Below the pieces are notes generated by a model. The model saw only the letters and a list, made by a program, of their open reading frames with translations, searched no databases and was not told the DNA's origin. Below are positions 32,512-64,000 of a stretch of 64,000 nucleotides of DNA, piece by piece; within the stretch, counting starts at the first letter, position 1; each line of letters begins with the position of its first letter. The stretch is from assembly GCA_050250895.1 (NCBI GenBank), contig JBFWNU010000003.1, positions 64,001-128,000 on the forward strand, read 5' to 3'. Position numbers and translations under genes: made by a program. The DNA comes from Vulcanimicrobiota bacterium. Its GTDB lineage: Bacteria; Vulcanimicrobiota; Xenobia; Xenobiales; JADMJV01.

Positions 32512-33843
32512 TCAGTCAGCGATCTCGACCGAGATGCCGCCGATGGTGAGGGCCTCGGGAGTGACCTCGAGTTCGAGCAGCGAGCGCGGCCGACCCGATA
32601 GCGCCGCCAGAGCCGCCTCGAAGGCCTGCTGGGGAAGGCTGCCCACCACCCGTTCGAGCCGCATGCGGTAGGCGCACTCGCGCTCGGCTTCGGCCAGGTT
32701 CTCGAGGCTGAGCTGGCCGCTCTGAAAGGCATCCTGCAGGCGTTTTTGATGCTGGTCGCGGCTGGCGAAGTCGCCGTGCAACCAGAGGTCGTCGGCCAAC
32801 CGCTTGCCACAGTCTTCGAAACTCTCGTGAGCGCCCTTCTCGGCCAGGACCTGGTCGAGGAACTGGCGGTCGTGACGGGCCGGGCCGGGCTCGGCCAGCA
32901 CATCGCCCACCACCCCCGGCAGGTCGGCTCCTTCGGGCAGCTGGGCTTGGAGTTGCGAGTAGTGGTCGACGGTCCAGTCAACGAAGCGGTTGACCTGATC
33001 GGGCTTGAGACCAAGCTCGCTCAGCCGGGTTTCAAGACCGGCGAACTGGTCCCAGAGGGGATCGAGCGTTCCGCCCAGGTTCTCGATGGCAGCCATCCGG
33101 CGTATTGCCTGGTCATAGTCAGGCGCCTGGGCTATGCGTTGCCAGACGCCGTTTTCGGCCCGGGCGGCCAGAGGAATCAGGTGAAAGAGTTCATTATTCT
33201 CGATGCCCGGACGCAGCGAAGCCAGCCGGCCGAGGGCGGCCTCGCGCTCTTCGGGCGAGGCTTCTTCTTCCAGGCGGTGGGTGCCCCAGGCGGCCAGGCT
33301 GGGCGAGCCGGTCAAGCCCAACAGAGTGCGAAAGGGGGTCGAATGGCCGTGGAAGTGGTTGACTTCGATCTTGAGCGCATTGCGGGCGTCGACCTGAGGA
33401 CCCCCGCCGGGACCACCGGCGCGACCGGTCACTACCAGCGCTTGCAGCTCGAGGAAGTCGCGATAGCCGCTAACAAGGTCGGGCGGAGTCTGGTTGGGCG
33501 TATAGTCGAGCGGGGCCGACAAGCCGTTGAGCGAAACGCTTTCGTTCGAGGGCGAGCAGCGATGGAGCACGCCATCTACCTCTTGCAGGCTGGCCCAGGC
33601 CATCTGATCGAGCAGCAGCGCATTGGGGCCGGGCGGGAAGGCATCGATGGCCAGCTGCAGCGCGGTGACTCTGGCCTGCCGGTCAAGTCCCGCCAGGGGT
33701 CCTGGACCTTGCTCGACCATGTTCGACAACAGCTCGAGCGAATCTTCGATCACGGGTTGCTCGTGCTGGCCGACCTGGTGGGCCAGCTTGACGAATCGCT
33801 GTCTTTCGACCGGGCTCAAGCCGGCAGTGGCGCGGACATTCAT
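32512..33843 (-). CDS. Hypothetical helical protein carrying the shared C-terminal tag
   Basis: 443-aa ORF ending LEVTPEALTIGGISVEIAD. Confidence 0.7.
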   Translation of the reverse strand: MNVRATAGLSPVERQRFVKLAHQVGQHEQPVIEDSLELLSNMVEQGPGPLAGLDRQARVTALQLAIDAFPPGPNALLLDQMAWASLQEVDGVLHRCSPSNESVSLNGLSAPLDYTPNQTPPDLVSGYRDFLELQALVVTGRAGGPGGGPQVDARNALKIEVNHFHGHSTPFRTLLGLTGSPSLAAWGTHRLEEEASPEEREAALGRLASLRPGIENNELFHLIPLAARAENGVWQRIAQAPDYDQAIRRMAAIENLGGTLDPLWDQFAGLETRLSELGLKPDQVNRFVDWTVDHYSQLQAQLPEGADLPGVVGDVLAEPGPARHDRQFLDQVLAEKGAHESFEDCGKRLADDLWLHGDFASRDQHQKRLQDAFQSGQLSLENLAEAERECAYRMRLERVVGSLPQQAFEAALAALSGRPRSLLELEVTPEALTIGGISVEIAD

Positions 33844-33910
33844 GCTGCGATGCTAGGACAACGGGCTGAAAAAACAGTGATACTTCGGCCCCGCCGCGAA
33901 AGGCCCGGCC

Positions 33911-35176: not shown

Positions 35177-36572
35177 ACTCGCGGCGGGGGCGGAGCCTCT
35201 CTATCGCCGCCTGACCGCCAGCCTGCAGAGTTGCCTGGAAAGCGGCCAGCTGCAGGTGGGTGAGCTGTTGCCCTCGAGCCGCGCCCTGGCTCGCCAGCTC
35301 GGGGTTCACCGCCAGACGGTGTTGACGGCTCTCGACGAGCTGCAGGCCGAAGGTTGGCTGGCAGCCGAGCCCGGGCGTGGCTATCGGGTGGTGGCCCTTC
35401 CGGCCACGGCGCCGACCCGGGCCGGCCAGGCTCGCCCCCGGTTCGTCTGGCAGTTGCGTGCTCCCGACCCCGATCCGCCGCCGGCGCTGGGCTTTCCCAG
35501 TGGCCGGCCCGACCTTACGAAGTTCCCGGTCAAGGAATACTACGCCGCCATTCGCGAGGTGCTGCGTCGCCACGAGCCCACCCAGTTGCTGGGCTACAGC
35601 GATCCGCGCGGCAAGCCGGCCCTGCGCCGCGAGTTGACGCGTTATCTTCGGCGGGCCCGGGGGATCCGAGCCGAAGAGGATGAAGTGGTGATCACCCACG
35701 GCAGTCAAGAGGCCATCTTTCTGCTGGCTCAACTGTTGCTCGAGCCCGGCGACGAGGTGGCCGTCGAGACACCGGGCTACCCTCCCGCCTGGGCGGCCTT
35801 TCGCCAGTGTGGAGCGCGCCTGGTTGGGGTCGAGGTGGATACCGACGGATTACGGCCCGACCAGTTACACGGCCTGAGCTCGAAAGTCAAACTGCTCTAT
35901 CTGACTTCGATTCACCAGTACCCCACCACCGTGACCCTGGCGGGACCGCGCCGCCGGCGGGTCTATGAATGGGCCTGTGAACGCGGTGTGCCTATCCTCG
36001 AGGATGACTACGACAACGAATTTCACTATCGCGGTCCCGGCGACGCCACTCTCAAAGCGCGCGACCCGGCCGGTCTGGTGCTCTATTGCTCGACCTTTTC
36101 CAAGGTGCTCCATCCGTCGTCCCGGTTGGGCTTTGCGGTCGTCCCGTCCGAGGTGGCCGGGCCGCTGGCAGCACTAAAAGACGTGGTCAGTCGTCAGAAC
36201 GACGGGCTCACCCAGGAAGCCGTAGCCTGGTGGATGGAGCAGGGCGGGTTCGAGCGTCATCTGCGCCGCATGCGCCGGCTCTATGAGAAAAAGCGGGACC
36301 ATCTGGCCAGCCTCCTGGCCGAAACCGACTTCACCTTTCAACTGCCCGACGGAGGGATGTGCTTGTGGCTGGATGTGGGCGTCTGTAGCCAGCGAGTAGC
36401 GCACGAGGCGACTCGGCTGGGTCTGGGGCTGCGCCCCGGTAACAGCTATCTCCTCGACGGGGGCCAGAGCACCTGTCTGCGGCTCGGATTTTGTGCTCCG
36501 GCAATCGAGCAGTTGACCCGATCTACGGGCCTGCTCGTGCAGGCCGTCGCCCGCTCGAGGACGAACCTCTGA
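35157..36572 (+). CDS. MocR/GabR-type GntR regulator with PLP aminotransferase domain
   Basis: LPSSR.LA..LGV.R.TV, EDDYDNEF and STFSK. Confidence 0.92.
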   Translation: MRELQIELAAGAEPLYRRLTASLQSCLESGQLQVGELLPSSRALARQLGVHRQTVLTALDELQAEGWLAAEPGRGYRVVALPATAPTRAGQARPRFVWQLRAPDPDPPPALGFPSGRPDLTKFPVKEYYAAIREVLRRHEPTQLLGYSDPRGKPALRRELTRYLRRARGIRAEEDEVVITHGSQEAIFLLAQLLLEPGDEVAVETPGYPPAWAAFRQCGARLVGVEVDTDGLRPDQLHGLSSKVKLLYLTSIHQYPTTVTLAGPRRRRVYEWACERGVPILEDDYDNEFHYRGPGDATLKARDPAGLVLYCSTFSKVLHPSSRLGFAVVPSEVAGPLAALKDVVSRQNDGLTQEAVAWWMEQGGFERHLRRMRRLYEKKRDHLASLLAETDFTFQLPDGGMCLWLDVGVCSQRVAHEATRLGLGLRPGNSYLLDGGQSTCLRLGFCAPAIEQLTRSTGLLVQAVARSRTNL

Positions 36573-36574
36573 GC

Positions 36575-37285
36575 GTGTTTGACAAGTTGCTTAGCAAGTT
36601 CAAAGCGGCTGTGGCGGGGGTGTCGATACCGGCCCAAGAGCGACGGGCCGTCATCCGCATCGGCGGTAAGGGTTTTACCGTCAATGGCCACGATGGTTCT
36701 AGCGCCTTTCAATGTGACCTGCTGGACGTGAGCGTGGCCGGGGCCCGCATTCGGGCCGAACACAGGCTCAAAGTTGGGGCCCGCGTGCGCCTGAGCAAAG
36801 ACACCCTGGGCGATAGCGTCAACGGGCGGGTCGTCTGGGCCGGCAGTCGGCTGGGCACGCTCAAGGGCCAGTATGGTGTGGTGTTCGAAGAGAGCAAAGA
36901 AGTCATGGCTCGCAGTTGGACGAAGCGCTGCTTGCAGCAGCTGGGTCTGGGCTCGAAGATCGGCATTCAAGAGCGGCGCCGAACGGTGCGCATGCCAACC
37001 AATTTCGCTGCCGCCATGGGCAACTTCCAGGGCGAGATCATGTGCGACGGCAAGCTGGTCCAGCTCTCGGCCGGAGGTTGCGTGTTGGCCATTCCCAGCC
37101 ACGTCGACGTGGGCACCCGCGTCTCTTTGATGGTGCCTGCCCTGGGCACGCTCGAGCCTTTGATCTGTCCGGGTACGGTCAAGCATATCCGCAAGGGCGG
37201 TCAGACGGTGCTGGCAGCTATCGAGTTTCACCAGCCCAAGGTGGACCTGGTGGTTCGCTACCTTAACCAGTTGGCCAATACGTGA
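36575..37285 (+). CDS. Tandem PilZ-domain protein
   Basis: ERRAVIR...DVSVAG and ERRRTVR...QLSAGG. Confidence 0.8.
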   Translation: MFDKLLSKFKAAVAGVSIPAQERRAVIRIGGKGFTVNGHDGSSAFQCDLLDVSVAGARIRAEHRLKVGARVRLSKDTLGDSVNGRVVWAGSRLGTLKGQYGVVFEESKEVMARSWTKRCLQQLGLGSKIGIQERRRTVRMPTNFAAAMGNFQGEIMCDGKLVQLSAGGCVLAIPSHVDVGTRVSLMVPALGTLEPLICPGTVKHIRKGGQTVLAAIEFHQPKVDLVVRYLNQLANT

Positions 37286-39135: not shown

Positions 39136-39145
39136 GAGGTTATGG

Positions 39146-40132: not shown

Positions 40133-40136
40133 GGCC

Positions 40137-45721: not shown

Positions 45722-45794
45722 GTTCGGTTTTTAAGGCTAGCTTCAGGCCGCTTCTCTAGTCTTTGCTTGATAGAAGACATAGGAGGAACGACCG

Positions 45795-47054
45795 ATGCAA
45801 ATCGCTCAGGTCAAGACCGGCTTCCCGCCGCTTCGGAGGGCAGCCACCTCCGACCAACCCTCACTCACCATCGAACAGGCTACCGACGTCTTGCTGGGTG
45901 GCGCATACAGAAATGCCGCCCAGCAAGCGCTCTCTCAAATCAGCCGGGCCCAACTGCCCCATGTGCCTAAAGAAGGCGAACGGCTGTGGACCCTGGCCGA
46001 TGGGCGGACCCTCGCCCTGCGCACCGACTTTCGCACCGTCACCGCCACGGATCTCGAGACGGGTAAGGAGCTCTGGGCTCACCATGAGTTTCCTGAAAGC
46101 CTGGGCGGGCTCCGGCCCTTGCGCCCCGACCGCGGTGGCAAGACCCTCGCTTTGACGGACGCTCACCACGGCGTGGCCTTGATCGACGGCGCCACCGGTC
46201 GGGTCAAGAGCCGCATCGAACCGCCCTTGAAAGGCTTCATCACGGCCTCTGAGTTCACCAAAGAGGGGCTGCTGCTGGTGGGCGTGCAACCCAGTCTGCC
46301 CAGTGGCTCAAAGCCGCTGACGCGAATCTTTGCCTACCCGGAAGGCGCCAGCGAGCCGGCCTGGTCGCTCGACCTCGAGCGCAGCGGCATCAACAACGCC
46401 GTCCCCTCTCCCGACGGAAAGAGGCTCTACTTCTCGGCTCACAACGAGTTCAAGATGCACGCTCTGGACCTTGAGAAGGGCGAGATCGTGTGGTCCAAGC
46501 CGCTGGCTCACCACTCGGATCCGGCCGTGGCCCGCGACGGCTCGGTGATTCTCGAGGGCGTGGCCTATGACCCCGAGACGCACCAGCCGCGCTGGAAGGT
46601 CGAAGGCGAGTTTGCTTCCACCCCCATCGAGGATGCTCAGGGTCAGCTCTATTTTGGGGTTGGCGGTCAATTGCAGTGCCGTCGTGAGGATGGCGCTGTG
46701 CTGTGGTCTACCCACGCTTCGGGCAAGAAGTGGAGATTTCCGCCGGTGATCAAGGATGACGCGGTTTTCGCCATGTCGGCCTCTGACCAGGGCACTCAGT
46801 TGCACGTGCTCAATCGCCTGACGGGGGAAGAACTGGCGGTTTCCGAGCCGCTCGGTGATGTGAGCCGGGGCTTCTTCCAGGCCGGCGACCGCGTCTATCT
46901 CGGACTCAAGCAGGGTTATGCCAGCATGGACCTTCCCACCTACACGCTGGCCGCCCTGGCCAGTCAGGCCGCCGAAAAGAACCGGCCGGCCGAGATTGTG
47001 ATCGGCGAAGACAAGCTGTCGGTGGGCGGCTTCGAACTCGACATCCTCGACTAG
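45795..47054 (+). CDS. PQQ-like beta-propeller protein with the shared C-terminal tag
   Basis: Repeated D..TG..LW and ALD..KG...W blades; ends IVIGEDKLSVGGFELDILD. Confidence 0.8.
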   Translation: MQIAQVKTGFPPLRRAATSDQPSLTIEQATDVLLGGAYRNAAQQALSQISRAQLPHVPKEGERLWTLADGRTLALRTDFRTVTATDLETGKELWAHHEFPESLGGLRPLRPDRGGKTLALTDAHHGVALIDGATGRVKSRIEPPLKGFITASEFTKEGLLLVGVQPSLPSGSKPLTRIFAYPEGASEPAWSLDLERSGINNAVPSPDGKRLYFSAHNEFKMHALDLEKGEIVWSKPLAHHSDPAVARDGSVILEGVAYDPETHQPRWKVEGEFASTPIEDAQGQLYFGVGGQLQCRREDGAVLWSTHASGKKWRFPPVIKDDAVFAMSASDQGTQLHVLNRLTGEELAVSEPLGDVSRGFFQAGDRVYLGLKQGYASMDLPTYTLAALASQAAEKNRPAEIVIGEDKLSVGGFELDILD

Positions 47055-51176: not shown

Positions 51177-51815
51177 ATGCGCATAGCCGGCTCACCCCCA
51201 ATTCGTCTGGCCCGCACGAGGACCGAGCCGACTGCTCGGGACGTGCTGCTGCCGCCCTGCCCGGAGAAGCCCGAGGACCTGCCGCTGCTCACGCGCCACG
51301 GCGTGGGCCTCACCGTGGCCGGGACGATGGCCACCTCGATCGGCACCGCGATCGGCGCCTCCTTTGCCGATGGTGGACTGGCTGGCCGGGCGATGGGGCT
51401 CACCTTTGGAGCCATTGCGGGAATGTCGGCCGGGTTCTTCGCGGCCGACCTGACGATGGGTCTGGCCTCGAAGGTCAGCGGGCATCAATTTTCGCCCACG
51501 GCCATCAAGATCGCCAGGGGAGTGGGCATGGCCGGGTGTCTGGCCGCGGGCTGGGCCCTGGCGGGAAAGAGGCTGCCCGACGAGTTCGTGCTCGGGCCAA
51601 TGGTGCCGGGAGTGTTCCTCGGCATGTTCACCGGAATCGGGCTGGCTTTCCGCTACGTCGACCCCATCATCGAGCGACACCGCCAGGCGGTGAGGCAGTA
51701 CGAAGAGGACCTGACCAGCTACAATCGGGCGGTGGCAGAATTGGAGACGGGTGTCGCCCTCAAAGAAACCGACGACTATGTCGAGGTGGGAGACATCACG
51801 CTCGATAAAGCCTAG
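51177..51815 (+). CDS. Glycine-zipper membrane protein with MRI start and the shared C-terminal tag
   Basis: About four hydrophobic helices and a coiled coil; ends LKETDDYVEVGDITLDKA. Confidence 0.75.
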   Translation: MRIAGSPPIRLARTRTEPTARDVLLPPCPEKPEDLPLLTRHGVGLTVAGTMATSIGTAIGASFADGGLAGRAMGLTFGAIAGMSAGFFAADLTMGLASKVSGHQFSPTAIKIARGVGMAGCLAAGWALAGKRLPDEFVLGPMVPGVFLGMFTGIGLAFRYVDPIIERHRQAVRQYEEDLTSYNRAVAELETGVALKETDDYVEVGDITLDKA

Positions 51816-54800
51816 TCTTGCTGGCGCGTGAGCGTGAAGTCGCCTACCGTGACCTGCTCGGCGTCCATCTCGAGCGACAGGTCCTTCTGGTTTTGAACCG
51901 CCTCGAACATCGCGATCACTTCGGTCACCGCTTCCAGTTCGGCTGACAGTGAGCGCCCGCTGGCAACCCGTTCACCGATGGCTTGATAAAGGGAGGCCTG
52001 GTCAGGCGTGCTGACTGCCAGCCAGCCCAGAATGGCCGTGGCCGCCTCGGCGCTCTGGTCGCGGTTGGCAAACCCAAGACCCAGCTTGAGAAATTCGCTA
52101 GGGCGGGTCGGTTGAGCGTCGCTGGCCAGAGCCTGCTCGGCCAGATCCAGCTGACCGGCTTCGGCAAAGCGAGCGGCCAGTTCTCCCGTCCATTTCTTTT
52201 CGGGCGACTGGCTGGCGCTGCGACAGGCCACCGCCATCACCAGGCCGCGGGCCTGATTGTGTTGATAGGCCCGCCGCAGTTGGGCGGCTTCGCGCAGCAC
52301 GCCGTTGTAGAAGTCGCCTGGTTGGGCGTCGGGGTCGGCCACGGCTCGCCGCAACACGATCTCTTCCACGGTGGGGTCGTGCAATTGCTGCCTCAGGGCG
52401 TTGGCCAATCCGGCCAGAGGCTTCTTGCAGTCGGCCAGGATCCGTTCAAGAATGCCCAGAGAAAGCTGGCCCTGCAGCTCTTTGCCGAGCTCTTCGACCG
52501 TGCGGGGTTGCTCGAGCAAGGCGCGGGCGATGAGTCGGCGCTCGCCGGCATCGGTTTCCGGTGTTACGAGCTTTTCGAGGACCGGCAGTTGGGCCGGGGC
52601 GTGCGTGCGCAGCGCCTTTTCGAGCAGAGCGGCTTGCTGGGGACGATAGGTGTAAGAGCGTGACCGTCCCAGGATTTCGTCGTCGGTGGCTAGCGCCGCT
52701 TCGAGGGCCGTGGCCGTGGGGTTGCCCGCTGCCTGGGCCAAGACTGCCGCCGTGGTCAGCTCGTCGCCGCCCTGGGCCAGTTCTAGCACGGCCGGCAAGG
52801 TGGCCTGGTAGGGCGGGTTTTGCGACAGCTCGGTGAGTAGTCCGAGCAAAGCGGGTGTTTCGGCGCCGGGAGCCACCTGCTGGATGAACGCGGCCAGCCG
52901 CTCGGGAGTCGACAGGTCGGGGTTGCGCAGCATCAGCTCCAGAGCCAGCTTGCTCGAGCCCCCCAGGGTGTCTTTGAGTTGCTTGGCCCGGGCCACGGTC
53001 TCGGGATGACTCGGTTGCAGCAGTTCGAGGGCCGACAGATAGACCTTCGAGACCTCCTGGTCGTATTTGTAGGAATAGCGGAACCCTTGAACCTTGCCAC
53101 CGGTGGCCAGGGCCAACTGCTGTGGGGTCTGGGTGGGATGTTCAAAAACGGACTCGTAGATGGCCTTCTGGACCGTTTCGTTGTCGCTGGCCCCGTCCAG
53201 TTGCCTGGCCGCTTGCACCAGCTGACATCCCTTGGCCTCGAGAGCCCCGGCCAGTCGGCGGGTTTTGTCCAGGCTCAACGAGGAGTTGGCGAAGTTGGCG
53301 AAGGCGGCCACCTGCTCGGCGGTGTCAAGCTGGGGCTGGCTGATCAGGCGCTCGAGCAGTGAGGGGGTCACCTCCGTTTCGAGCAAGTCGGCCATGGCCA
53401 CCGCCTGACCGTAGGTTTGAGTGGGAGCCTGAGTCAGGGCCTCTCGCATCACCGCACTCACCGCCGGGTCATACTTGTAGGAATAGCGAAGTTGAGACAG
53501 GCTGCGTCGCACGCGGCCGGCCAGTTCGAGGGCATCGGCGGTGGGGGCGAGCAGGGCGTTCTCGCGGATCGCTCCGGCCACCGTATTGTCGGCGGCGACC
53601 TGGATGTATCTGTCGGCAACCTCCAGGGTGGGGCGGTGGACCGTATCTTGCCGGAGCAATTCGATCATCCCCAGCCGAGCTCTGTCGTAGGATGTGCTGT
53701 TGACCACGGTGCGGGCCAACTCGCGCCGGCCCTCGGGGCTGTCGGGCACCGGCTGTTTCAGCAGATGCTTGACCAGCGGTAGCTCGTTGCTGGGTTCGGC
53801 CGGGTCGCCCAGGGCTTGGAGCAAGGTCAGGTTGTAAGCGAAGCCAGGCTCGTTCTGGCGGGCTTGCAGGCAGTCGCGCAGAATCTTTGCCACCTCGGGA
53901 TCGTGCCTGTAGGCGTAACGCCAGCCTGACACTTCCTCGGCCGTTTTCGTGCCCAGCTCGGTCCTGGACAGTTTGGGATGGGCGAAAGCCTGGTTGTAGA
54001 CGGCCCGGGCGATGCCCGGCGCGGTGGCGGCCAGTTGGCGGGCCTCGGTCATGGTCTGGTTGTAGTCGGGGTTGCGTCCCAGAATGCCGGCTAACCGTTC
54101 GGCTAGATCGACCTGTGAGCTGTGCGAGGTCAACTGCCGGGCGATGTTCAGCCAGTCTACCTTCGGGTCGCCCAGGAGCATGCGGTGGAAGACCACTCGG
54201 GTCGAATCATCGAGAAGGCCCTCGAGCTCGGCAATCGGTCCGTCGCGTCCCTCGAGTTCGAGAGCCGATTTCAGCAGGCGAGCACGGGAAGGGTCGTGCT
54301 GGTAGGCGTGGCGCATCTGGCCGACCTCCGACTCTGCCTTTTGGGCCAGAACGCCGGGGGAGGCCTCGGGGTTTTTGAGCGCCTGGCGGGTTAGCGCCAG
54401 CCGGGTCGTGGCATCGCAATCCTTACTCAGACTGGCCACCCTTTGGGGCAGCTCGGCCAGGCCGGCCCTGGCGGCGACTCCTTCAAGAATACGGTCGGCG
54501 TTGCTCTGGGTGACCGAGTCGGCCAGCTCTCGAGCCAGGCTTAGATAACCTTTGGGCGTGTCGGGACGGTCCGTCTGCAGTAGCTGCTTATAGACGGTCA
54601 GCCGTTCAGCCGAGTCGCTGGCCGGGTCAAGCCATCGGGCTACCTCGGCGCTCAGGCCGCCGGTGAGGTTGCAGGCCGTTTCGAGCAGTTCGGCGCGGGC
54701 ATCGATCCATTGATAGGCGTGGCGCAACCCCTGCATCGCTTCTTCGGTGCGCATGGCCTGATGGCGAGGCTCGGCCGTGGGATAGCGCCGCAGGGCGGCG

Positions 54801-56023
54801 GCCAGTTTTTCGCGCAGAGTGGCATCTTTTGCCACCTCGAAGAACTTCTCGAGGTGGGGCCCGCCGCTGGCCATCAAGGCCGAACAGGTCATCTTGACCG
54901 CGTCCTCGCCACGCAACCCGTCAGCCAACTCGAGCGCCTTGTCGGGGGCGGCCAGTTCGGGCTTTTCCAGCAGCAGAGCGGCCATCGTGACTTTGCCTTC
55001 AGGGCTCAGTTTGGCAGCGTTGTAGAGCTGGCAGGCCTGCTCGTAGGTGGCTTCGTTAGCCAAACTTTGCATGGCGCGGTCGGCAATTTTCTGGTAGGCC
55101 GCGCTTCCGTCTCCGGCGCGCAGGGCTCGCGCCACTACCCCGGCTTTAGCCTCGGGCGAAGAATGGCTGCGGGCCACCAGGGCCTCGTTGAGTAACTGGG
55201 TCCGAGCGCGTTCCCCGTCGAGTCCCTCGACCAGATGGGTGGCGAATCCGGCCATGGGTGCGTAGCTGGGATGGACAGCCAGCACAGGCACCACCTCGGG
55301 TGAGGCCTTCCCGTCTAGAGTGCCTTTGTCCAGCGCGAAAGCCTGTTGGGCCAACTCGAGCGAGCCTGCCTCACGAAGTCTTGCAAACGTCTGCAGATCG
55401 TCCGCCTGGAAGTCGCTGGCCCTGGCCAAAAGCCAGGGCTCGTCCTGGTGGCCGATCCAGCTCTTCGCCTGGCCGTGATTGGCCAGCACGTAGGCGCCCA
55501 CCGGCTGTTTGTTCTCTTCAAAAAAGCTGTATCCGCCGTTCTCGAGGCCGGCCAGGGGGTGGCTGCCCGCATAGAAGGCATCCACTCGCTGCAACTGCTC
55601 GGGGCTCGAGATGGCCAGCAGCGTGCCACGGCGGGCCAGGGTCAACTCGCTCAGGCCGTGGGCCGCATCGGTCAGCGTGTTGTAGGCCCCGTAGAGACCC
55701 ACTTCTACCTGTTGGCCCTCGAAGGTGGCCAGGAAGCGAAATTCTCGCGAGGCCAGATCGTGCAGTTGACTGGCCAGGCTTTTGTGGCTGGAGTTGCCGG
55801 CCAGGTCCTTGACTTCGCCCAGATCTTCCGGACTGCGCAGGGGTAGACGCACAGCGGCGTCGGCCGGTTGCACGCGCAGGCGGTCGGTCTGGGGATGTGA
55901 GCCGAGATACTCCTCGACCTGGGAGGGGGTGACTTCCTTATAGGCATCCATCAGCAAGGGCACGTAGAAGCGCCGCTTCTGGAAGTAGTGAACCTGTCCC
56001 GGCCCGTCTGGGTTGATCCTCAC
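51812..56023 (-). CDS. Giant helical repeat protein (1403 aa) with the shared C-terminal tag
   Basis: Seven ~130-145-aa repeats marked by R[HY][AS]Yx[HY]; ends LEMDAEQVTVGDFTLTRQQD. Confidence 0.85.
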   Translation of the reverse strand: MRINPDGPGQVHYFQKRRFYVPLLMDAYKEVTPSQVEEYLGSHPQTDRLRVQPADAAVRLPLRSPEDLGEVKDLAGNSSHKSLASQLHDLASREFRFLATFEGQQVEVGLYGAYNTLTDAAHGLSELTLARRGTLLAISSPEQLQRVDAFYAGSHPLAGLENGGYSFFEENKQPVGAYVLANHGQAKSWIGHQDEPWLLARASDFQADDLQTFARLREAGSLELAQQAFALDKGTLDGKASPEVVPVLAVHPSYAPMAGFATHLVEGLDGERARTQLLNEALVARSHSSPEAKAGVVARALRAGDGSAAYQKIADRAMQSLANEATYEQACQLYNAAKLSPEGKVTMAALLLEKPELAAPDKALELADGLRGEDAVKMTCSALMASGGPHLEKFFEVAKDATLREKLAAALRRYPTAEPRHQAMRTEEAMQGLRHAYQWIDARAELLETACNLTGGLSAEVARWLDPASDSAERLTVYKQLLQTDRPDTPKGYLSLARELADSVTQSNADRILEGVAARAGLAELPQRVASLSKDCDATTRLALTRQALKNPEASPGVLAQKAESEVGQMRHAYQHDPSRARLLKSALELEGRDGPIAELEGLLDDSTRVVFHRMLLGDPKVDWLNIARQLTSHSSQVDLAERLAGILGRNPDYNQTMTEARQLAATAPGIARAVYNQAFAHPKLSRTELGTKTAEEVSGWRYAYRHDPEVAKILRDCLQARQNEPGFAYNLTLLQALGDPAEPSNELPLVKHLLKQPVPDSPEGRRELARTVVNSTSYDRARLGMIELLRQDTVHRPTLEVADRYIQVAADNTVAGAIRENALLAPTADALELAGRVRRSLSQLRYSYKYDPAVSAVMREALTQAPTQTYGQAVAMADLLETEVTPSLLERLISQPQLDTAEQVAAFANFANSSLSLDKTRRLAGALEAKGCQLVQAARQLDGASDNETVQKAIYESVFEHPTQTPQQLALATGGKVQGFRYSYKYDQEVSKVYLSALELLQPSHPETVARAKQLKDTLGGSSKLALELMLRNPDLSTPERLAAFIQQVAPGAETPALLGLLTELSQNPPYQATLPAVLELAQGGDELTTAAVLAQAAGNPTATALEAALATDDEILGRSRSYTYRPQQAALLEKALRTHAPAQLPVLEKLVTPETDAGERRLIARALLEQPRTVEELGKELQGQLSLGILERILADCKKPLAGLANALRQQLHDPTVEEIVLRRAVADPDAQPGDFYNGVLREAAQLRRAYQHNQARGLVMAVACRSASQSPEKKWTGELAARFAEAGQLDLAEQALASDAQPTRPSEFLKLGLGFANRDQSAEAATAILGWLAVSTPDQASLYQAIGERVASGRSLSAELEAVTEVIAMFEAVQNQKDLSLEMDAEQVTVGDFTLTRQQD

Positions 56024-56063
56024 CAGTCTAACCTAGACCAGGCGACTGAAAATGTCATGAACG

Positions 56064-56564: not shown

Positions 56565-56624
56565 AATATGTGAATCCTCCTGAGATTGCTACCAGCAAGC
56601 TACCAATCTCGGCCGGGATGGGGT

Positions 56625-56640: not shown

Positions 56641-56719
56641 TCTTTTCGAAGGCAGTCGGGCTGACGCTGATCATCGCCGTTACCCGATCGCCCTGCTAAC
56701 CTCTGTCCAGGAGGCGGCG

Positions 56720-59419: not shown

Positions 59420-59489
59420 TTCGGCTTGGCGTGAACGGGGCGTAGCTCTTTTCGAAGCGTTTTCAGGGCCTGGTGTTAGGCTCGGCTTG

Positions 59490-60752
59490 ATGAGGATTGA
59501 CTCCCAGATAGGTCTCCCCCGGTCGGTTGCCAGGCCCGCGGTCGCTGCTACCGGGCCGATCGACACGGTCGAACTCGGTCGCGAAACTCCGGTCAAACTC
59601 ACGCGTGCGGCCGTGGCCGCCCTGGTCGGCCAGACCTCAAAGGAACTCAAGCCTCTCTGGAACCGCGAAATCTCAGACGTGGTGGGGCCAGACTATCCCG
59701 AAATTCAGGGCGCACCGGTGATTGCAACCGATGGCAAGCGGGCCTTCTTCGCCAGCCAGCACGCTTTGCTCGCGCTTGACTCCAAGACCGGCGCGACCGG
59801 TTGGAGCTTCGACGCCGACGGCAAAGGCATCGCCAGCCGTCCGCTGGTGCACGGTGATCAGGTTCTGGTGTCGGCCCTCGATGGCAGAGTCTATGCTCTG
59901 GATTCGGTTTCCGGCACTCCGGCCTGGAGTGCCCCTTGCGACCATCCCGCAGGCTTGCAACTGGGGGCCGACGGTTCCATCGTGGTGGGGGTCAAGAATG
60001 GCCAACTGGGACTCGACCCCACCACGGGCGAGCAACTGTGGTCCTCTCCGGTTCCTTTTGGCGACTCGGCGGTCGGACTGAATAACCAGATCGTTCGCGC
60101 CGGCGACCAGGTCCGGGCCGCGGTGGCCTATGACCGCGACAGCGGCGAAGAGCAGTGGCGTTTTTCTCAGGGCGGCCTGATCCGTCATCGGCCCACGGTG
60201 GGTCCCGACGGAACGGTCTATGTGGGCGATACCGACGGCAAGTTTTTTGCTCTTGACCCGGCCACCGGCCAGCCTCGCTGGATTCACCAGACCGAGGGCT
60301 ACGTGTTGGAGCCGTCGACGGTATCGGCCGACGGTCAGACTGTCTACGTGGGCAGCAGCGATCAACACCTCTATGCCCTGGATACGGCTACCGGCGACCC
60401 CCGCTGGAAATGCAAGGTCGAGGGCGAGGTGCGCATGCAGCCCAACCTGTCGGGCCAGGGCACGGTGGTGCTGGCCAGCGATAAGAACAAGATTTACGTG
60501 GTCGACGAGGCCACCGGTTCGCCCCTGGCCTCGGCCCCGGCCGCCAGTTACGTGCATGTGGCCCCGGCGGCTGGCGGTGATAGCCTGGTGCTGCAGGCCA
60601 ACAACCACACCCTCTACGGCTTTGGTTCGCCTACCGGGCTGCGCTCGCAACTGAGCCAGGCGATGCAGCAGGCAGACGCTCCCACGATGCGCTTGACCAG
60701 CGACGCCGAGGCCGTTCACATCGGCGAAGTCGACGTGCCCATCCAGCCTTAG
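59490..60752 (+). CDS. PQQ-like beta-propeller protein with MRI start and the shared C-terminal tag
   Basis: Multiple YALD..TG...W blades; ends LTSDAEAVHIGEVDVPIQP. Confidence 0.85.
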   Translation: MRIDSQIGLPRSVARPAVAATGPIDTVELGRETPVKLTRAAVAALVGQTSKELKPLWNREISDVVGPDYPEIQGAPVIATDGKRAFFASQHALLALDSKTGATGWSFDADGKGIASRPLVHGDQVLVSALDGRVYALDSVSGTPAWSAPCDHPAGLQLGADGSIVVGVKNGQLGLDPTTGEQLWSSPVPFGDSAVGLNNQIVRAGDQVRAAVAYDRDSGEEQWRFSQGGLIRHRPTVGPDGTVYVGDTDGKFFALDPATGQPRWIHQTEGYVLEPSTVSADGQTVYVGSSDQHLYALDTATGDPRWKCKVEGEVRMQPNLSGQGTVVLASDKNKIYVVDEATGSPLASAPAASYVHVAPAAGGDSLVLQANNHTLYGFGSPTGLRSQLSQAMQQADAPTMRLTSDAEAVHIGEVDVPIQP

Positions 60753-63700
60753 TCCTGCTGGCGAGTGACGCTGAAGTCACCCACCGTGACCTGCTCGGCG
60801 TCCATGTCTAAAGACAGATCTTTCTGGCTGTTCATGGCCTCGGCCAGGGCGATGACTTCGGTTACGGCTTTGAGTTCGGCGGCCAGCGAACTGCCGTTGG
60901 CAACCTTCTGGGCGATGGTGCTGTAGAGCGAGGATTGCTCGGGGGTGCTGTCGGCCAGCCAGCTCAAGATAGGCTTGGCAGCGCGATTCTGCTTGTCGGT
61001 CTCGGCCAGCTTGAGGCCTAGCTTGAGATACTCGCTCGGTCGGCTGGGCGGGGCCTCTTCGGCTAGGACGGTGGTGGCTAAACCGAGTTCTTTGGCTGTG
61101 GCCAGACGCGCCGCAAGCTCGCCGAGCCACCTCTTCTCGGGGCTGCCCGACAGATTGCGGGCAGCCGCGGCCATGACGATCCCCTGGGACTCGGTGTAGT
61201 TGTAAGCGTCGTTCCGGCTGCGGATGCGTTGCATCACATGCTGATAATACTCCTGGACCGACTGGTCGGGATTAGCGGCCGCTTCACGTAAGGCCAGCAG
61301 CCGGACCGTTTCCTGTTGGAGTTGCTGGTTAAGCGTGTCGACCACCGGAGCCAGGGGATTCGAGCCGACGGCCATCAGCCGTTGCAGCACACCCGTCCCC
61401 AGACTCTCGGCGAGCTTGGTGCCCAATTGCTCGGGGTCGTGGCCCTGCTCGAGCAGGGTCCTGGCCAGCAGACGCCGCTCGGAATCGTTCGGTTTGCCCT
61501 GGAGCAACTGGTCGAGCAGCGAGGCCGAGTCGGCCTGGTGTCCTTTCACGGCGGCCACCAACAAGTTTGCCTGGGCGTTGCGATAGTCGTAGGCATTGCT
61601 GCGCTGGTTGATGCTCGCATCGGCGGCCAGGGCCAGCGTCACGACCGACGCGCTCGGGTCCTTGGCGCTCGCCCTGAGGAATTCGCTCTTGACCACGCCC
61701 TCGAGCTGGGCGGCCAGGCTCAGCGCTGGTGTTAGCGTCGGCTGGTTGGTGGCCAGATCTTGTAGCAAAGCAGTCAGGGCCGCGTCGGACGCGCTCCAGT
61801 TGGCCATCTGCCTGGTAAACTCGGCGAGCTTGCCGGGGGTGGAAAGATCCGGCGATTCGAGCAGGTAGTCCAGCATCCGTCCATTGGCGTAAGTTTCGTG
61901 AAGCTTGTGGGCGCGGTCCACCGTGTCGGGATGGCTCGGTCTGAGGGTGTCCAGGGCCGCCAGTTGCACCTTAGCCAACTCACCCCGATAGTTGTAGGCG
62001 TCGTTGCGTTGGGCCACTTGCCGACTGACGGCCAGGGCTAGCTGGGTGGGGCTGTCATCAGGATGGGCGAAGGCCTCTTGGTAAACGATTCGCTGGATGA
62101 GTTGATTCTCGCAGGCCTGATCGAAGCGCTGGGCGGTGGCGAGCAACTTGCCGCCCTGAGCGGCAACCGCCTCGGCTAACCGGCGAGTGGATTCGAGGGA
62201 AAGACGCTGACTGGCAAAGGCCCCGAAATCGTTGAGCTGGTCCAGGTTGCCAAGCTCGGGGTGCTCGAGTAGCCGGGCGTAGATGTCGGGACGCTTGTTC
62301 TCGCTCAGGCTCTGGGCCATCTGGTTGGCCTGACCGTAGCGCTCGGCCGGAGCCGCCGCCAGCGCTTGTTTGAGTAGCGTCGCCACGGCCTGGCTGTGTT
62401 CATAGCTGTTGTTGAGCTGGTTGACGGCTCGATGGGTGGCCAGGGCCATTTCTACCCCATTCGCTGTGGGCTTTAAGAGGGTCTGCTTGCGCAACTCGCG
62501 CAGCACCACCGGGTCGGCCGGCACCACGAGTTCGCGGTAACTTGCCATGGTGGCCCGGGTTGCCTGATCGCCCTCGAGCAGATCGATCGCGCCTTCCAGG
62601 CAGCGGTCATTGGCGTAGCTATTGGCGATGAAGGTCGCCAGCCGTTGGCGTCCTTCGGGAGTGTCGGCGATGGGAGCTTCGAGCAGATGGCGCAGCCAGC
62701 GAATCTCGTTGGTGGACTCCGGGTTGCCTAAGAGGTCGTAGAGTTTGAGGTTGTAAGCATAGTCGGGATGGCTACTCATCTCGGCCATGCCTTTTCGCAG
62801 CACCTTCGTGAGGTCCCCGTAGTGGTTGTAGCTCGAGGACCAGCTCGAGACTTCGTCGGCGGCGCCCACCGCCAGTTGGGCGGGGTTGGCGTCCGGATGG
62901 GCGTAAGCCTGGCGATAGACGGCCGCTCCGGGCGTGCCTGCTCCAACGGCCAGCTTGGCGGCCGCTTCCATGGTGGGGCGATACTCGGGCGTCTCGGCCA
63001 CCAGAGCAGCCAGTCGCTTGTGTAAGTCTAGCTCGTTGCGCCTGCCCAGCGAACTCCTGGCGACATCCAGCCAGGTGGTCTGGGGCTCGCGCAAGAGCTG
63101 ACTATAGAAGCTGACTTTGCCGCTATCGTCGAGGACAGAGTCGAGCTGGTTCGCCCGGTCGGCCAGACCTTCCATCTTGACGCCGTTGGCCAGTTGGCGG
63201 GCCCGAGAGGCAAAGTGATTGTAGGCCGAGTTGCCCTGGCTGACCTCGGCCTCGACCGCCAGGGCCAGGCGGCCGGGCGGGGCGTCGGGATTGGCCAGAG
63301 CTTTGCGAGCCAGCGCCAGCTTGATCTGGTCGTCACAACCCTCGCTCAACCCCTTCACTCGATCGGCTAGCGAGTCGAACCCCGCCATCTTCGAGAGGGC
63401 CTGTAGGAAGCTCTCGGCGCTGGCCTGACCTAACGAGTTCGCCAGGGTGGCCACCACCCGGCGCTGGTCCTGGGGGGTCTCGAGACGCTGGTCTTGCAGC
63501 ACCCGACGGCAGACGCTGAGGCGTTCGCTGTCGCCGCCTTCGGGCTTGAGCCAGGTCACGATTTCGGCCCCGGGGCCCGCGCCTTCCAGGCAGGCGACCG
63601 CGAGCAGTTTCGCCCGGTCAGCGTTCCACTGATAGGAGTATTGCCACTGGCCGATTTCTTGCTCGGTCCTGACAGCCCACTCGCGCATGCCCGCCTCGGG

Positions 63701-64000
63701 GTCTTTGCGCACGACCCGGGCCAGCACCTCACGAATGCGGGGATTCTTGCTGGCCTCGAAAAGCTTGTGGACCGAACCCTGGCCGCGAGCGAGCATGGCC
63801 GAGCGGGTCATCTCGACCGCGTCTTCTCCTTTGACCCGGTCGGCCAGGGCCAGCGACTGGTCGGGCTCGGCGAGTTCGGGTTGGGCCAACAGAGCGGCCG
63901 CCATCGAGACCTTGCCCGCCGCCCCCAGCGAAGCGTTTTGATAGAGCTTGCAGGCGTTGGCATAGGCCGGCTCGGCGGCCAGAGCGGCCATGGCCCGGTC
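60749..64000 (-). CDS. Giant helical repeat protein, paralog of 51812..56023, 5'-truncated by the window edge
   Basis: Collinear similarity over more than 1080 aa; ends LDMDAEQVTVGDFSVTRQQD. Confidence 0.85.
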   Translation of the reverse strand, partial: DRAMAALAAEPAYANACKLYQNASLGAAGKVSMAAALLAQPELAEPDQSLALADRVKGEDAVEMTRSAMLARGQGSVHKLFEASKNPRIREVLARVVRKDPEAGMREWAVRTEQEIGQWQYSYQWNADRAKLLAVACLEGAGPGAEIVTWLKPEGGDSERLSVCRRVLQDQRLETPQDQRRVVATLANSLGQASAESFLQALSKMAGFDSLADRVKGLSEGCDDQIKLALARKALANPDAPPGRLALAVEAEVSQGNSAYNHFASRARQLANGVKMEGLADRANQLDSVLDDSGKVSFYSQLLREPQTTWLDVARSSLGRRNELDLHKRLAALVAETPEYRPTMEAAAKLAVGAGTPGAAVYRQAYAHPDANPAQLAVGAADEVSSWSSSYNHYGDLTKVLRKGMAEMSSHPDYAYNLKLYDLLGNPESTNEIRWLRHLLEAPIADTPEGRQRLATFIANSYANDRCLEGAIDLLEGDQATRATMASYRELVVPADPVVLRELRKQTLLKPTANGVEMALATHRAVNQLNNSYEHSQAVATLLKQALAAAPAERYGQANQMAQSLSENKRPDIYARLLEHPELGNLDQLNDFGAFASQRLSLESTRRLAEAVAAQGGKLLATAQRFDQACENQLIQRIVYQEAFAHPDDSPTQLALAVSRQVAQRNDAYNYRGELAKVQLAALDTLRPSHPDTVDRAHKLHETYANGRMLDYLLESPDLSTPGKLAEFTRQMANWSASDAALTALLQDLATNQPTLTPALSLAAQLEGVVKSEFLRASAKDPSASVVTLALAADASINQRSNAYDYRNAQANLLVAAVKGHQADSASLLDQLLQGKPNDSERRLLARTLLEQGHDPEQLGTKLAESLGTGVLQRLMAVGSNPLAPVVDTLNQQLQQETVRLLALREAAANPDQSVQEYYQHVMQRIRSRNDAYNYTESQGIVMAAAARNLSGSPEKRWLGELAARLATAKELGLATTVLAEEAPPSRPSEYLKLGLKLAETDKQNRAAKPILSWLADSTPEQSSLYSTIAQKVANGSSLAAELKAVTEVIALAEAMNSQKDLSLDMDAEQVTVGDFSVTRQQD

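Follow-up and report, generated by a model that had tools for sequence, protein, structure and literature searches.

A Short C-Terminal Tail Shared by About Ninety Otherwise Unrelated Proteins in a Vulcanimicrobiota Genome

Short terminal address tags sort large sets of client proteins, and newly recognized ones have led to machines such as exosortases, the type IX secretion system (T9SS), and encapsulins. The C-terminal domains (CTDs) of T9SS clients are β-sandwiches of about 80 to 100 amino acids, and their carriers have a Sec signal as well; the PEP-CTERM, MYXO-CTERM, GlyGly-CTERM, and LPXTG signals, which likewise depend on a Sec signal at the N terminus, join a motif to a transmembrane helix and a basic cluster. 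The cargo-loading peptides of family 1 encapsulins are short and C-terminal and dock diverse cargo to one shell protein. NRPS/PKS docking domains, short terminal elements on flexible linkers, provide specific protein-protein docking, and type I secretion signals are generally poorly conserved in sequence. In the flagellum, residues 360 to 403 of FlgE form its helical D0 C terminus. A C-terminal targeting signal of the early flagellar subunits FlgE, FlgC, and FlgG, placed in FlgE at residues 360 to 403, has been published (PMC10936197).

Here we describe a tail common to about 90 otherwise unrelated proteins encoded by a Vulcanimicrobiota bacterium; it is a real, previously undescribed tag. Six of the tagged genes lie in one window, the stretch of 64,000 nucleotides that was analyzed.

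Six tagged genes in the window

A first-pass annotation, made from the DNA letters, had claimed that six proteins of the window end in a common tail, and all six ends were reproduced at the C termini as it had quoted them. The genes, named A to F, are as follows.

32512..33843, minus strand: gene A, an orphan of 443 amino acids with no Pfam or NCBIfam family; the tail is the last 34 codons, 32515-32616.
45795..47054, plus strand: gene B, 419 amino acids, a PQQ_2 propeller (PQQ/BamB-like); tail at 46950-47051.
51177..51815, plus strand: gene C, 212 amino acids, with a glycine-rich hydrophobic middle and a helical end; tail at 51711-51812.
51812..56023, minus strand: gene D, an orphan of 1403 amino acids with internal repeats; tail at 51815-51916.
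59490..60752, plus strand: gene E, 420 amino acids, a PQQ propeller (PQQ/BamB-like); N-terminal leader at 59490-59627, tail at 60648-60749.
60749..64000, minus strand: gene F, a paralogue of D that extends beyond the window; tail at 60752-60853.

The stop-to-stop ORF of F is 1427 amino acids long and reaches G000:C3:129032. D and F share 47% identity across their last 495 amino acids and both have internal repeats, which identifies them as paralogues; even G088, a genome of the same genus, holds no homologue of D's body. Searches of the genome contigs with E, and with an alignment of its orthologues, returned only distant PQQ propellers (28 to 31% identity).

The annotation had described the bodies as two PQQ propellers, a glycine-zipper membrane protein, a helical orphan, and two giant solenoids. 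The propellers (B and E) stand, whereas A, C, D, and F match no family in Pfam or NCBIfam: C does have an internal hydrophobic, glycine-rich stretch, and D and F are repeat-containing paralogues. The annotation was right that none of the six has a Sec signal, in that a crude hydropathy test found a Sec-like N-terminal stretch in 0 of 6, and right that no housekeeping protein is tagged. The window does contain ordinary housekeeping genes; within it, a profile of the tail (described below) picks out the six named ORFs and no others, and its matches include none of the further 51 ORFs there that were compared with Pfam. The window also contains a gene for an S41/PDZ tail-specific protease (21024-22307), and genes for M48 and M50 peptidases flank gene B.

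Position, spread, and predicted fold of the tail

An unanchored regular expression for the core motif was run over every six-frame ORF of 80 amino acids or more in the 9.5-Mb genome, 58,562 in all. It gave 58 matches, 45 of them at 2 to 6 residues from the stop, versus 0.37 expected from the internal rate; one more lay at 7 to 12 residues, one at 13 to 30, and the other 11 deeper inside. When the last 34 residues were shuffled, 20 rounds yielded 0 or 1 match each, and reversed tails yielded none. A hidden Markov model (HMM) built from the 45 stop-proximal matches, with a cutoff of 8 bits, found 79 matches at or above that score genome-wide; 75 of them end no more than 10 residues from the stop, and 4 are internal. 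The 75 ORFs with a canonical tail and about 13 with variant tails bring the genome total to about 88. Both the shuffled control and the genome-wide scan had been proposed in the first-pass annotation, and their outcome agrees with its reading: the tail is position-locked and modular. Internal matches were considered as Rosetta-stone fusions and rejected, being few and resembling chance hits or repeat proteins, as with FG-GAP-like VAVGDFNLDG repeats, which reached significance only through summed weak stretches.

The conserved unit is 20 to 25 amino acids long, and the spacing from motif to C terminus varies from 0 to 12 residues. The canonical consensus is L-x-[LV]-x-x-[DE]-[DE]-x-[LV]-x-[IV]-G-[DGS]-[FIV]-x-[LV]-x-[IVKR], and that of the tails in other genera is I-E-x-G-[DE]-D-W-V-x-I-G-G-V-R-L-P-R-R. 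The tail is hydrophilic, acidic here and basic in the other genera, with no hydrophobic helix and with charged or polar residues at its end.

When E was aligned with four orthologues (51 to 55% identity), 7 of the last 14 columns were invariant, versus none in the preceding linker of about 22 columns; orthologues keep the tail but differ in the linker ahead of it. As judged from this alignment, the tail is under purifying selection and is selected as protein. Matches in other genomes were mostly terminal too, 16 of the 20 that were fetched lying at most 12 amino acids from the stop, and a search of 1.84 billion library proteins gave 8 single-stretch matches, every one ending 0 to 3 amino acids from the C terminus; the tail of gene C gave no usable match in the ESM Atlas.

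The scan of related genomes, also proposed at the outset, found the terminal tail again, spread patchily across the phylum: it occurs in 18 or 19 of 201 sampled genomes, at 5 to at least 39 copies each, all or none. Per-genome counts were taken with a profile of foreign tails among the best candidates, at most 39 per genome. Matches numbered 20 to 26 in genus g6, 26 in g13, 12 to 19 in genera g10, g19, g29, and g36, and 5 to 8 in g8 and g9; g1 is tag-positive as well. The sister genera g2 and g3, represented by 14 genomes, gave no match, and neither did g4, g5, g7, or f13. The tag is thus distributed lineage by lineage in an all-or-none manner, which is what clients of a dedicated system would show.

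Modeled alone with AlphaFold, the tail is predicted to form a three-stranded mini β-sheet (residues 11 to 34; pLDDT, 87 to 94) with one hydrophobic face. The full-length model of E places a helix at residues 382 to 394, followed by strands at 408 to 411 and 414 to 417 (pLDDT, ∼60), and has a disordered N terminus. On these models, the tail is best read as an independently folding C-terminal module of 20 to 25 residues. The annotation had proposed a β-hairpin behind a helix-like linker, and the predicted strands do follow a helical or Pro/Ala-rich linker. Its claim that the tail matches no known family also held in every collection searched. NCBIfam matched 0 of 44 tails, and none of the six window proteins matched the T9SS CTD models (TIGR04183 and PF18962); Pfam gave three unrelated singletons on the 44 tails and nothing else; a profile search of PDB sequences gave a best E value of 0.29 with alignment A2 and nothing with the tail alignment A1; and Foldseek gave a best E value of 2.4, all of its matches being subfragments of large enzymes. 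No published description of the tag was found in literature covering Myxococcota, Eremiobacterota, Eudoremicrobium, and secretion, sorting, and targeting signals.

Carrier bodies, promoter-like element, and N-terminal leader

Most carriers are orphans, and as a set they are without Sec-like N termini. Among 40 further carriers compared with Pfam (E ≤ 1e-5), 33 had no domain and 7 were PQQ, WD40, or PD40 propellers or an alpha/beta hydrolase. The crude hydropathy test found a Sec-like N-terminal stretch in 4 of 75 carriers; applied to E and its orthologues it gave 0 of 5, versus 53 of 96 complete-looking PQQ homologues from elsewhere. It also detected an internal membrane-like stretch in 19 of the 75, so some carriers may be plain membrane or cytoplasmic proteins.

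Many carriers share a promoter-like element, a TTTCAG repeat (spacing, 11 nucleotides) followed by a −10-like box, TAnnnT, 5 to 8 nucleotides before the start codon. The elements in the window are as follows.

33841..33871, minus strand: element of A, TTTCAG-N10-TAGCAT-N6-ATG, ending on the start codon.
45730..45762, plus strand: element of B, TTTAAG-N6-TTCAGG-N9-TAGTCT, read directly from the sequence.
56021..56051, minus strand: element of D, TTTCAG-N10-TAGGTT-N6-GTG, ending on the start codon.
59461..59492, plus strand: element of E, TTTCAG-N10-TAGGCT-N7-ATG, ending on the start codon.

In B, about 30 nucleotides that include GGAGG separate the element from the ATG at 45795, and gene C has no exact match to the pattern. 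The full element matched three times in the window, versus 0.03 expected, each time on the start of A, D, or E, and 77 times genome-wide, versus 4 for a reversed-pattern control; by eye, 15 of the 77 adjoin the start of an ORF with a canonical tail and 4 that of an ORF with a variant tail. Of 101 tag or leader genes, 33 had TTTCAG in the 200 nucleotides upstream, versus 237 of 4774 controls. Sigma-28 and sigma-54 promoters were rejected as alternatives, their patterns occurring upstream of 0 of 101 genes. At the sequence level, the tagged set carries a signature of co-regulation. The promoter type is also present in tag-negative genomes (39 matches in G050 and 27 in G066), so the co-regulation would be older than the tag. 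The distance of the −10-like box from the start codon, 5 to 8 nucleotides, suggests that the mRNAs of these genes are leaderless.

Many carriers also share a proline/arginine-rich N-terminal leader, which in E reads MRI..R..P..DTVELG. The pattern M-[KRQ]-[IV]-x-[PSG] occurs at the first start codon of 14 of 53 tagged ORFs, versus 62 of 4819 others; some of the M-[KRQ]-[IV] bias may belong to leaderless starts at the nucleotide level and not be a protein signal. Leader and tag show no strict co-distribution across genomes. Small leader-only proteins with glycine-zipper ends exist. A suspected resemblance of the leader to FlgM was not supported: Pfam FlgM matched 0 of 20 leaders, and a leader profile missed the genome's own FlgM. 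The same leader and promoter are carried by untagged hydrolases; from about 140 such untagged genes 20 were hand-picked, and among these are endonuclease I, two alpha-amylases, GHL10, patatin, GDPD, and S9, M61, M90, and C26 peptidases. Judged by these predicted families, the hand-picked genes are a degradative, secretome-like set.

Candidate readers and comparison with known systems

The tag most likely addresses its carriers to one common partner, to judge from the features described above. In the mechanism we favor, the tail, an acidic strand, a turn, and a β-hairpin on a flexible or helical linker, would be recognized in trans by that partner as an address or docking tag. It would have been grafted onto many unrelated, fast-evolving proteins of a co-regulated set handled without a Sec signal, and it would route or fix them in a Sec-independent export or envelope-assembly pathway. 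We give this explanation about an even chance; both the reading of the tail in trans and its connection with export or assembly are inferred. A wider proposal is possible but doubtful: tail and leader together would mark the clients of an undescribed Sec-independent sorting or export system, with about 100 to 200 co-regulated proteins per genome (orphans, propellers, and hydrolases); the system would have been gained or lost as a unit in different lineages, and its machine may be a repurposed flagellar-type exporter or one not recognized so far.

The first-pass annotation had proposed a secretion machine, chaperone, or assembly scaffold as the reader of a modular tag. The modular, position-locked tag on unrelated bodies stands, but no such partner was found. 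Among the neighbors of the 75 carriers, the only families that recur are generic ones (histidine kinases, protein kinases, CBS and ankyrin proteins, and pseudopilin cassettes), and inspection by eye of 60 adjacent same-strand ORFs revealed no conserved small chaperone-like gene. In the genome, which is 99.6% complete, VirB4 (PF03135) of the type IV secretion apparatus had no match, TssC and phage sheath were not found, and the encapsulin shell protein Linocin_M18 (PF04454) had no match at E ≤ 0.01. Two flagellar-type export systems are present, with two full-length FlhA genes and a second core cluster that is complete (FlgBC, FliE-J, FliK, a FlgG-like gene, FliMN, FliOPQR, and FlhBA), as are eight soluble proteins that hold only the cytoplasmic docking domain of FlhA (FlhA-C). 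This expansion of FlhA-C paralogues was rejected as the tag reader; in a first look, with five candidates scored per genome, candidate counts were equal or higher in genera without a tail match.

The flagellar-type genes, the missing VirB4, TssC, and phage sheath, and the predicted disorder at the N terminus of E would all suit a tail that serves as a C-terminal targeting signal for flagellum-type type III export, with the disordered leader as the export signal proper. We nevertheless regard this explanation as unlikely. With five candidates scored per genome, g2 and g3, the genera that gave no tail match, have two full-length FlhA matches (three in G082) and many FlhA-C candidates, so the apparatus does not track the tag; by eye, none of the 77 promoter matches lies at a flagellar cluster or an FlhA-C paralogue; and the leader failed both FlgM comparisons. 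Early flagellar subunits do offer a precedent for C-terminal targeting, but the signal there lies at FlgE residues 360 to 403, in the helical D0 C terminus, and not in a β-hairpin. A lineage-specific type I secretion signal, read by an ABC/MFP/TolC exporter, would account for carriers that are Sec-less, Cys-poor (0.6% versus 0.9%), and up to 1683 amino acids long, and for an uncleaved-looking signal at the extreme C terminus behind a helix; it is nonetheless improbable, since 46 carriers compared with Pfam (6 at E ≤ 1 and 40 at E ≤ 1e-5) contain no RTX or other calcium-binding repeat family, no ABC/MFP genes recur within 6 kb of carriers, a set of about 88 substrates would be unusually large, and the tail is sharply conserved, unlike type I signals in general. 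We hold it equally improbable that the tail is a self-association module, a small β-sheet oligomerization domain with a role like that of the fibritin foldon, which no other protein reads. The tail is predicted to fold alone, as a three-stranded sheet with one hydrophobic face, a helix often precedes it, and the Trp-containing hairpin of the other genera, DDWVIIGG, is reminiscent of the foldon; but enzymes, propellers, and membrane proteins have no evident common need for one oligomeric state, cross-associating tails would mix about 88 different proteins, and neither the PDB sequence search nor Foldseek retrieved fibritin or any small oligomerization domain.

The remaining explanations are more remote. 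Docking of carriers onto the tip complexes of type IV (pseudopilin) filaments is very unlikely, even though the genome has 36 pseudopilin/PilX-like cassettes, an unusual number, and tagged genes directly follow a cassette on the same strand at at least two loci. Seven cassettes lie within 3 kb of a tagged ORF, versus 3.2 in random placements (P = 0.035), but this excess is weak (1 kb, P = 0.14; 6 kb, P = 0.055), most carriers are far from any cassette, and the globular domains of pilins are periplasmic, whereas the carriers lack a Sec signal. There is a very slim chance that the tail has the N-terminal leader as its binding counterpart, whether on its own protein or on a different one, and that the two pair as NRPS/PKS N- and C-terminal docking elements do. 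Both elements are enriched on the same proteins and sit on flexible linkers, and the small leader-only proteins could be anchors; set against this, leader and tag do not co-distribute across genomes, the leader is disordered in the model of E and not placed beside the tail, and part of the N-terminal bias may be nucleotide-level. Slimmest of all is the chance that the tail is a degradation or quality-control signal for a protease or adaptor. Its C-terminal position and conservation, the S41/PDZ protease gene, and the M48 and M50 genes beside B would fit, but a motif-to-end distance of 0 to 12 residues suits PDZ-type end recognition poorly, the predicted ordered fold does not suggest a simple degron, and the tag is patchy, unlike S41/PDZ-type, M48, and M50 proteases, which are generally near-universal.

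The preferred reading, a tag read in trans by one partner, comes with a sharply defined tag, about 88 clients, and a clean presence/absence pattern, which together are material for a search for the reader. Dozens of pure orphan proteins can now be annotated as one functional class that has a promoter type and a leader in common, and this in a phylum where hardly any experimental biology exists. Should the tag drive export or display, it might also provide a portable handle.

Among the described systems, the flagellar subunit signal resembles the tag as a C-terminal element that acts with N-terminal signals, and a flagellar-type machine is present here; that signal is in the C-terminal region of rod and hook subunits (PMC10936197), whereas the tag is a predicted β mini-sheet on nonflagellar proteins and does not track the apparatus across genomes. 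The NRPS/PKS docking domains also sit on flexible linkers, but the carriers are not megasynthases and complementary pairing with the leader is not supported. Type I signals are likewise uncleaved, at the extreme C terminus, and on Sec-less and sometimes giant proteins; the tag differs in that the 46 carriers compared with Pfam have no RTX repeats and no ABC/MFP genes recur within 6 kb of carriers, and in its unusually sharp conservation. Encapsulin cargo-loading peptides share a flexible Pro/Ala-rich linker and a hydrophobic-x-hydrophobic-Gly core, but the shell protein was not found here, and about 88 carriers of up to 1683 amino acids exceed known cargo sets. The tag differs from exosortase- and sortase-type signals in being hydrophilic, without a hydrophobic helix or an NCBIfam model match, and resembles them as a multicopy C-terminal sorting tag that is all-or-none by lineage. 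Compared with the T9SS CTDs (type A, TIGR04183/PF18962, and type B), it is only 20 to 25 amino acids long, has no HMM match, and occurs on carriers without Sec-like N termini (4 of 75 Sec-like); like them, it appears to be a lineage-restricted C-terminal address on many unrelated proteins.

A C-terminal tail on proteins with different bodies

Six ORFs in the window, here called A to F, end in a common module of 20 to 25 residues, which we regard as confirmed to be real, selected, modular, lineage-restricted, and undescribed. The tail sequences quoted in the first-pass annotation agree exactly with the ORF ends, and a hidden Markov model (HMM) of the tail found those six ORFs in the window and no others:

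32512-33843 (-), A
45795-47054 (+), B
51177-51815 (+), C
51812-56023 (-), D
59490-60752 (+), E
from 60749 (-), continuing past the window end, F

Six-frame translation of the genome (G000; 9.5 Mb, 63% GC, 17 contigs; the window is C3:64001-128000) gave 58,562 stop-to-stop ORFs of ≥80 aa, of which 45 match the pattern of the first-pass annotation when it is anchored 2 to 6 residues ahead of the stop. The unanchored core pattern occurs 58 times in 10.3 million residues: 45 matches lie 2 to 6 residues from the stop, against an expectation of 0.37 derived from the internal rate, with a single match at 7 to 12 residues, another at 13 to 30, and 11 deeper inside. Shuffling the last 34 residues left 0 or 1 matches per trial in 20 trials, and reversed tails gave none. 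The HMM, built from the 45 tails, detected 79 stretches at ≥8 bits; 75 end ≤10 residues from the stop and 4 are internal, so the matches are not position-independent. A relaxed pattern gave 17 extra coding-like candidates, 13 of which were accepted as variants with Asn or Asp replacing Gly, for a total of ∼88 carriers (proteins ending in the tail).

The G000 consensus is L-x-[LV]-x-x-[DE]-[DE]-x-[LV]-x-[IV]-G-[DGS]-[FIV]-x-[LV]-x-[IVKR]-x(1-5)-stop, with an acidic end; its counterpart in other genera, I-E-x-G-[DE]-D-W-V-x-I-G-G-V-R-L-P-R-[RK], has a basic end and usually follows a Pro/Ala-rich linker. AlphaFold2, applied to the isolated tail with an alignment of 44 tails (30 from G000 and 14 from other genomes), predicted three short strands at residues 16-18, 22-25, and 28-31, with pLDDT of 87 to 94 across residues 11-34. 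The model of full-length E (76-sequence alignment, mean pLDDT 86) has a confident propeller, disordered residues 1-30 (pLDDT ∼40), and a C-terminal helix at 382-394 followed by strands at 408-411 and 414-417 (pLDDT ∼60). These predictions agree with the helix-like linker and β-hairpin proposed earlier, with an extra strand preceding the hairpin. Four orthologues of E in public assemblies (51 to 55% identity) all retain the tail (AVRIGGVEIPIR); across E and these orthologues, 7 of the final 14 alignment columns are invariant, compared with none of the ∼22 preceding linker columns.

A shared promoter-like element and an N-terminal leader

Of 101 tag or leader genes, 33 have the hexamer TTTCAG ≤200 nt upstream, compared with 237 of 4,774 control ORFs (hypergeometric p ∼8e-18). 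Alignment gave the element ttca-N6-TTTCAG-N10-TA(G)nnT-N5-8-ATG/GTG, with TTTCAG exactly 28 nt ahead of the start codon in fourteen genes; in others a TT(T)CAG-like repeat lies 11 nt upstream of the first copy. The −10-like box 5 to 8 nt before the start codon suggests leaderless mRNAs, and the 11-nt direct repeats ending ∼10 nt before that box resemble promoters of OmpR/PhoB-type activators. The full element occurs three times in the window (0.03 expected), each time with a tagged gene's start codon at its end; B has a displaced copy, and C has no exact match to the pattern:

33841-33871 (-), promoter-like element of A, full pattern
56021-56051 (-), promoter-like element of D, full pattern
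59461-59492 (+), promoter-like element of E, full pattern
45730-45762 (+), promoter-like element of B, ∼30 nt further upstream, then GGAGG

Genome-wide there are 77 matches, compared with 4 for a reversed-pattern control; judged by eye, 15 adjoin canonical tagged ORF starts and 4 adjoin variant-tail ORF starts. Counts in other genomes of the phylum were 49 in G088 (same genus), 85 in G058, and 12 in G108, as well as 39 and 27 in two genomes that gave no tail match, G050 and G066 (reversed-pattern controls, 1 to 7). Because the element is present in tag-negative genomes, the tag would have been joined onto proteins of an older, pre-existing regulon. Among 20 untagged genes with the promoter or leader, hand-picked from ∼140 with enzyme-like ones favoured, 12 have Pfam domains: GDPD, two α-amylases (one with a glycine-zipper 2TM domain after the leader), S9 prolyl oligopeptidase, endonuclease I, acyltransferase, peptidases C26, M90, and M61, a PRK-family kinase, GHL10, and patatin. 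These picks are largely degradative, a class of protein that is normally extracytoplasmic.

Of 53 tagged coding-like ORFs, 14 have M-[KRQ]-[IV]-x-[PSG] at the first start codon, compared with 62 of 4,819 others; the M-[KRQ]-[IV] part of this bias may partly reflect nucleotide constraints at leaderless starts. Many untagged ORFs of this class have a longer leader in common, in which M-[KRQ]-[IV]-x-P is followed by ∼10 residues, an Arg that does not vary, a stretch rich in Pro and Ala, and D-x-V-x-L-S. Its profile matches ∼90 G000 ORFs at ≥10 bits, among them C-terminally tagged proteins (the leader of E spans 59490-59627 (+)), small proteins of 80 to 190 aa with a glycine-zipper end, and enzymes, including hydrolases (amylases, GHL10, and patatin). 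In all 22 best matches the first profile position is ATG or GTG; 19 have no earlier start codon and 3 have one. A likeness of the leader to the N-terminal half of FlgM had no HMM support and was set aside.

Distribution in the phylum and searches of known families

Among 201 sampled genomes of the phylum (one unpublished genome, G177, was counted only; ≤39 candidates were scored per genome), a profile of 46 G000 tails matched 19. A profile of 12 foreign tails matched 18, of which 17 were also positive with the G000 profile, and yielded many more matches per genome: 20 to 26 in each of the five genomes of genus g6, 26 in g13, 12 in g10, 12 in g19, 19 in g29, 15 in g36, 5 to 8 in three of four g8 genomes, and 5 in g9. 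There were no matches in 14 genomes of g2 and g3 (same family as G000, 5 to 8 Mb), and with the foreign-tail profile there were none in g4, g5, g7, or family f13 and two single weak ones in family f15. Of 20 foreign matches inspected, 16 lie ≤12 residues from the stop and 4 do not. Searching 1.84 billion representative proteins with a profile yielded 12 matches at E≤1e-3, but this barely informs on absence elsewhere, because at this depth significance is reachable only by the strongest tails; eight were single stretches ending 0 to 3 residues before the C terminus, and four were long repeat proteins, significant only through summed weak stretches (e.g., FG-GAP-like VAVGDFNLDG).

The tails resemble no described CTERM family: none of 44 matched NCBIfam at E≤1, and Pfam gave three unrelated singletons (E, 0.03 to 0.23). 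When used as profiles against PDB sequences, one alignment (A2) reached at best E 0.29 and another (A1) matched nothing; Foldseek with the tail model reached E 2.4, to fragments of large enzymes, and the ESM Atlas gave no usable match. No description of the tag appeared in full-text literature on the phylum, related large-genome lineages, or C-terminal sorting, targeting, and cargo-loading signals.

Carriers and candidate partners of the tail

The first-pass annotation had described the six bodies as different. Family HMM scans identified B and E as PQQ/BamB-like propellers; A, C, D, and F had no family match in Pfam or NCBIfam. D and F are paralogues containing internal repeats, and a search of 15 further genomes of this family, same-genus G088 included, found no match to the last 495 residues of D. 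Of 40 carriers scanned beyond the window, chosen from 69 by best-scoring tails, 33 lack a Pfam domain at E≤1e-5; the others comprise four PQQ_2, one WD40, one PD40, and one α/β hydrolase. By a crude hydropathy test, 4 of 75 carriers have a Sec-like N terminus and 19 contain an internal membrane-like stretch. The same test found a Sec-like N terminus in none of E and its four orthologues, compared with 53 of 96 complete-looking homologues of other organisms; judged from these sequences, the E-type propeller, commonly Sec-exported elsewhere, has lost its Sec signal in this lineage.

Around the six genes the window holds ordinary housekeeping genes, including OTCase, a sigma/anti-sigma pair, lactate permease, HtpG, a P-type ATPase, and GGDEF; the first two lines below hold the window's only secretion-related genes and its GGDEF regulator, and the others are side observations:

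36491-39135 (+), PilZ-domain gene, then an ATPase with cyclic-nucleotide-binding, MshEN (c-di-GMP-binding), and T2SSE secretion-ATPase domains
40137-41081 (-), response-regulator GGDEF gene
31007-31936 (+), 309-aa protein with a eukaryote-like PI3/PI4-kinase catalytic-domain match (E 1e-9)
44896-45639 and 47058-47930 (-), M48 (HtpX-like) and M50 (site-2 protease-like) membrane peptidase genes flanking B
56112-56564 (-), 150-aa acidic orphan ORF, co-directional with the giant gene D and 80 nt upstream of it; other giant carriers showed no equivalent neighbour

Elsewhere in G000, ankyrin-repeat proteins recur beside tagged genes.

G000 has two secretins and two full FlhA genes, and eight soluble proteins contain the FlhA cytoplasmic C-terminal domain (FlhA-C) without the rest of FlhA, three of them fused, to HTH_3, FliG_N, and the FlhB C-terminal domain:

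C1:1458965-1476156, compact and complete second core cluster of flagellar type: FlgB, FlgC, FliE, FliF, FliG, FliH, FliI, FliJ, SLT lytic transglycosylase, FliK-like, 271-aa FlgG/FlgE-like, FliM, two FliN, FliO, FliP, FliQ, FliR, FlhB, FlhA
C1:585691-587613, other FlhA, ∼27 kb from FlgM (C1:558747-558902)
C6:529401-530381, C1:2013982-2014740, C1:2475431-2476438, C7:121919-122905, FlhA-C proteins 1 to 4
C1:1126976-1127566, C7:117253-118194, C1:2008860-2009774, C8:31716-32150, FlhA-C proteins 5 to 8

The stretch examined at the second cluster yielded no flagellin or L/P-ring genes; an M48 peptidase and three AIM24 genes flank the cluster region. First-look candidate counts, with five candidates scored per genome, suggest that FlhA-C expansions are similar or larger in other large genomes of the phylum.

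The purpose of the tag is likely export or envelope assembly. We give roughly even chances to the reading that it is a tag, recognised in trans by a common partner, that addresses or docks a co-regulated set of Sec-independent proteins. That the tail routes carriers through flagellar-type export is unlikely: VirB4, TssC, phage sheath, and encapsulin were not found in G000, and thus the flagellar-type exporter is the only specialised Sec-independent system seen there, and C-terminal targeting of flagellar substrates has a published precedent (PMC10936197); however, genera without a tail match likewise have at least two FlhA genes and many FlhA-C candidates, and by eye none of the 77 promoter matches lies at flagellar-type or FlhA-C loci. 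A type I secretion signal and a self-association module are each less probable still.

Docking at a pseudopilus has a slim chance. Among 975 neighbour ORFs of 75 carriers, the recurring ones were generic families and pseudopilin cassettes, and 7 of 36 cassettes lie ≤3 kb from a tagged ORF, compared with 3.2 when randomly placed (P=0.035), but the association fades at 1 kb (P=0.14). By BLAST (E≤1e-6), the cassette parts comprise 33 PilX-like proteins (∼600 aa), 16 small pilins bearing an N-methylation motif, and a third small family with 22 members. The cassettes are unusually numerous (examples are C1:2414317-2417502 and C10:30842-35174) and often adjoin histidine-kinase and protein-kinase genes. 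Pairing of leader with tail is slightly less probable again: the leader profile, a narrow one applied to 35 candidates per genome, matches 20 of 201 genomes, taking in some tag-negative g3 genomes and leaving out tag-positive g8, g9, g19, g29, and g36, and the two signals therefore appear separable. Least probable is a degron. Compared with known systems, the preferred reading, a tag recognised in trans, belongs to a kind already described, that of terminal sorting and docking tags; new are the tag itself, its client set, and its putative reader.
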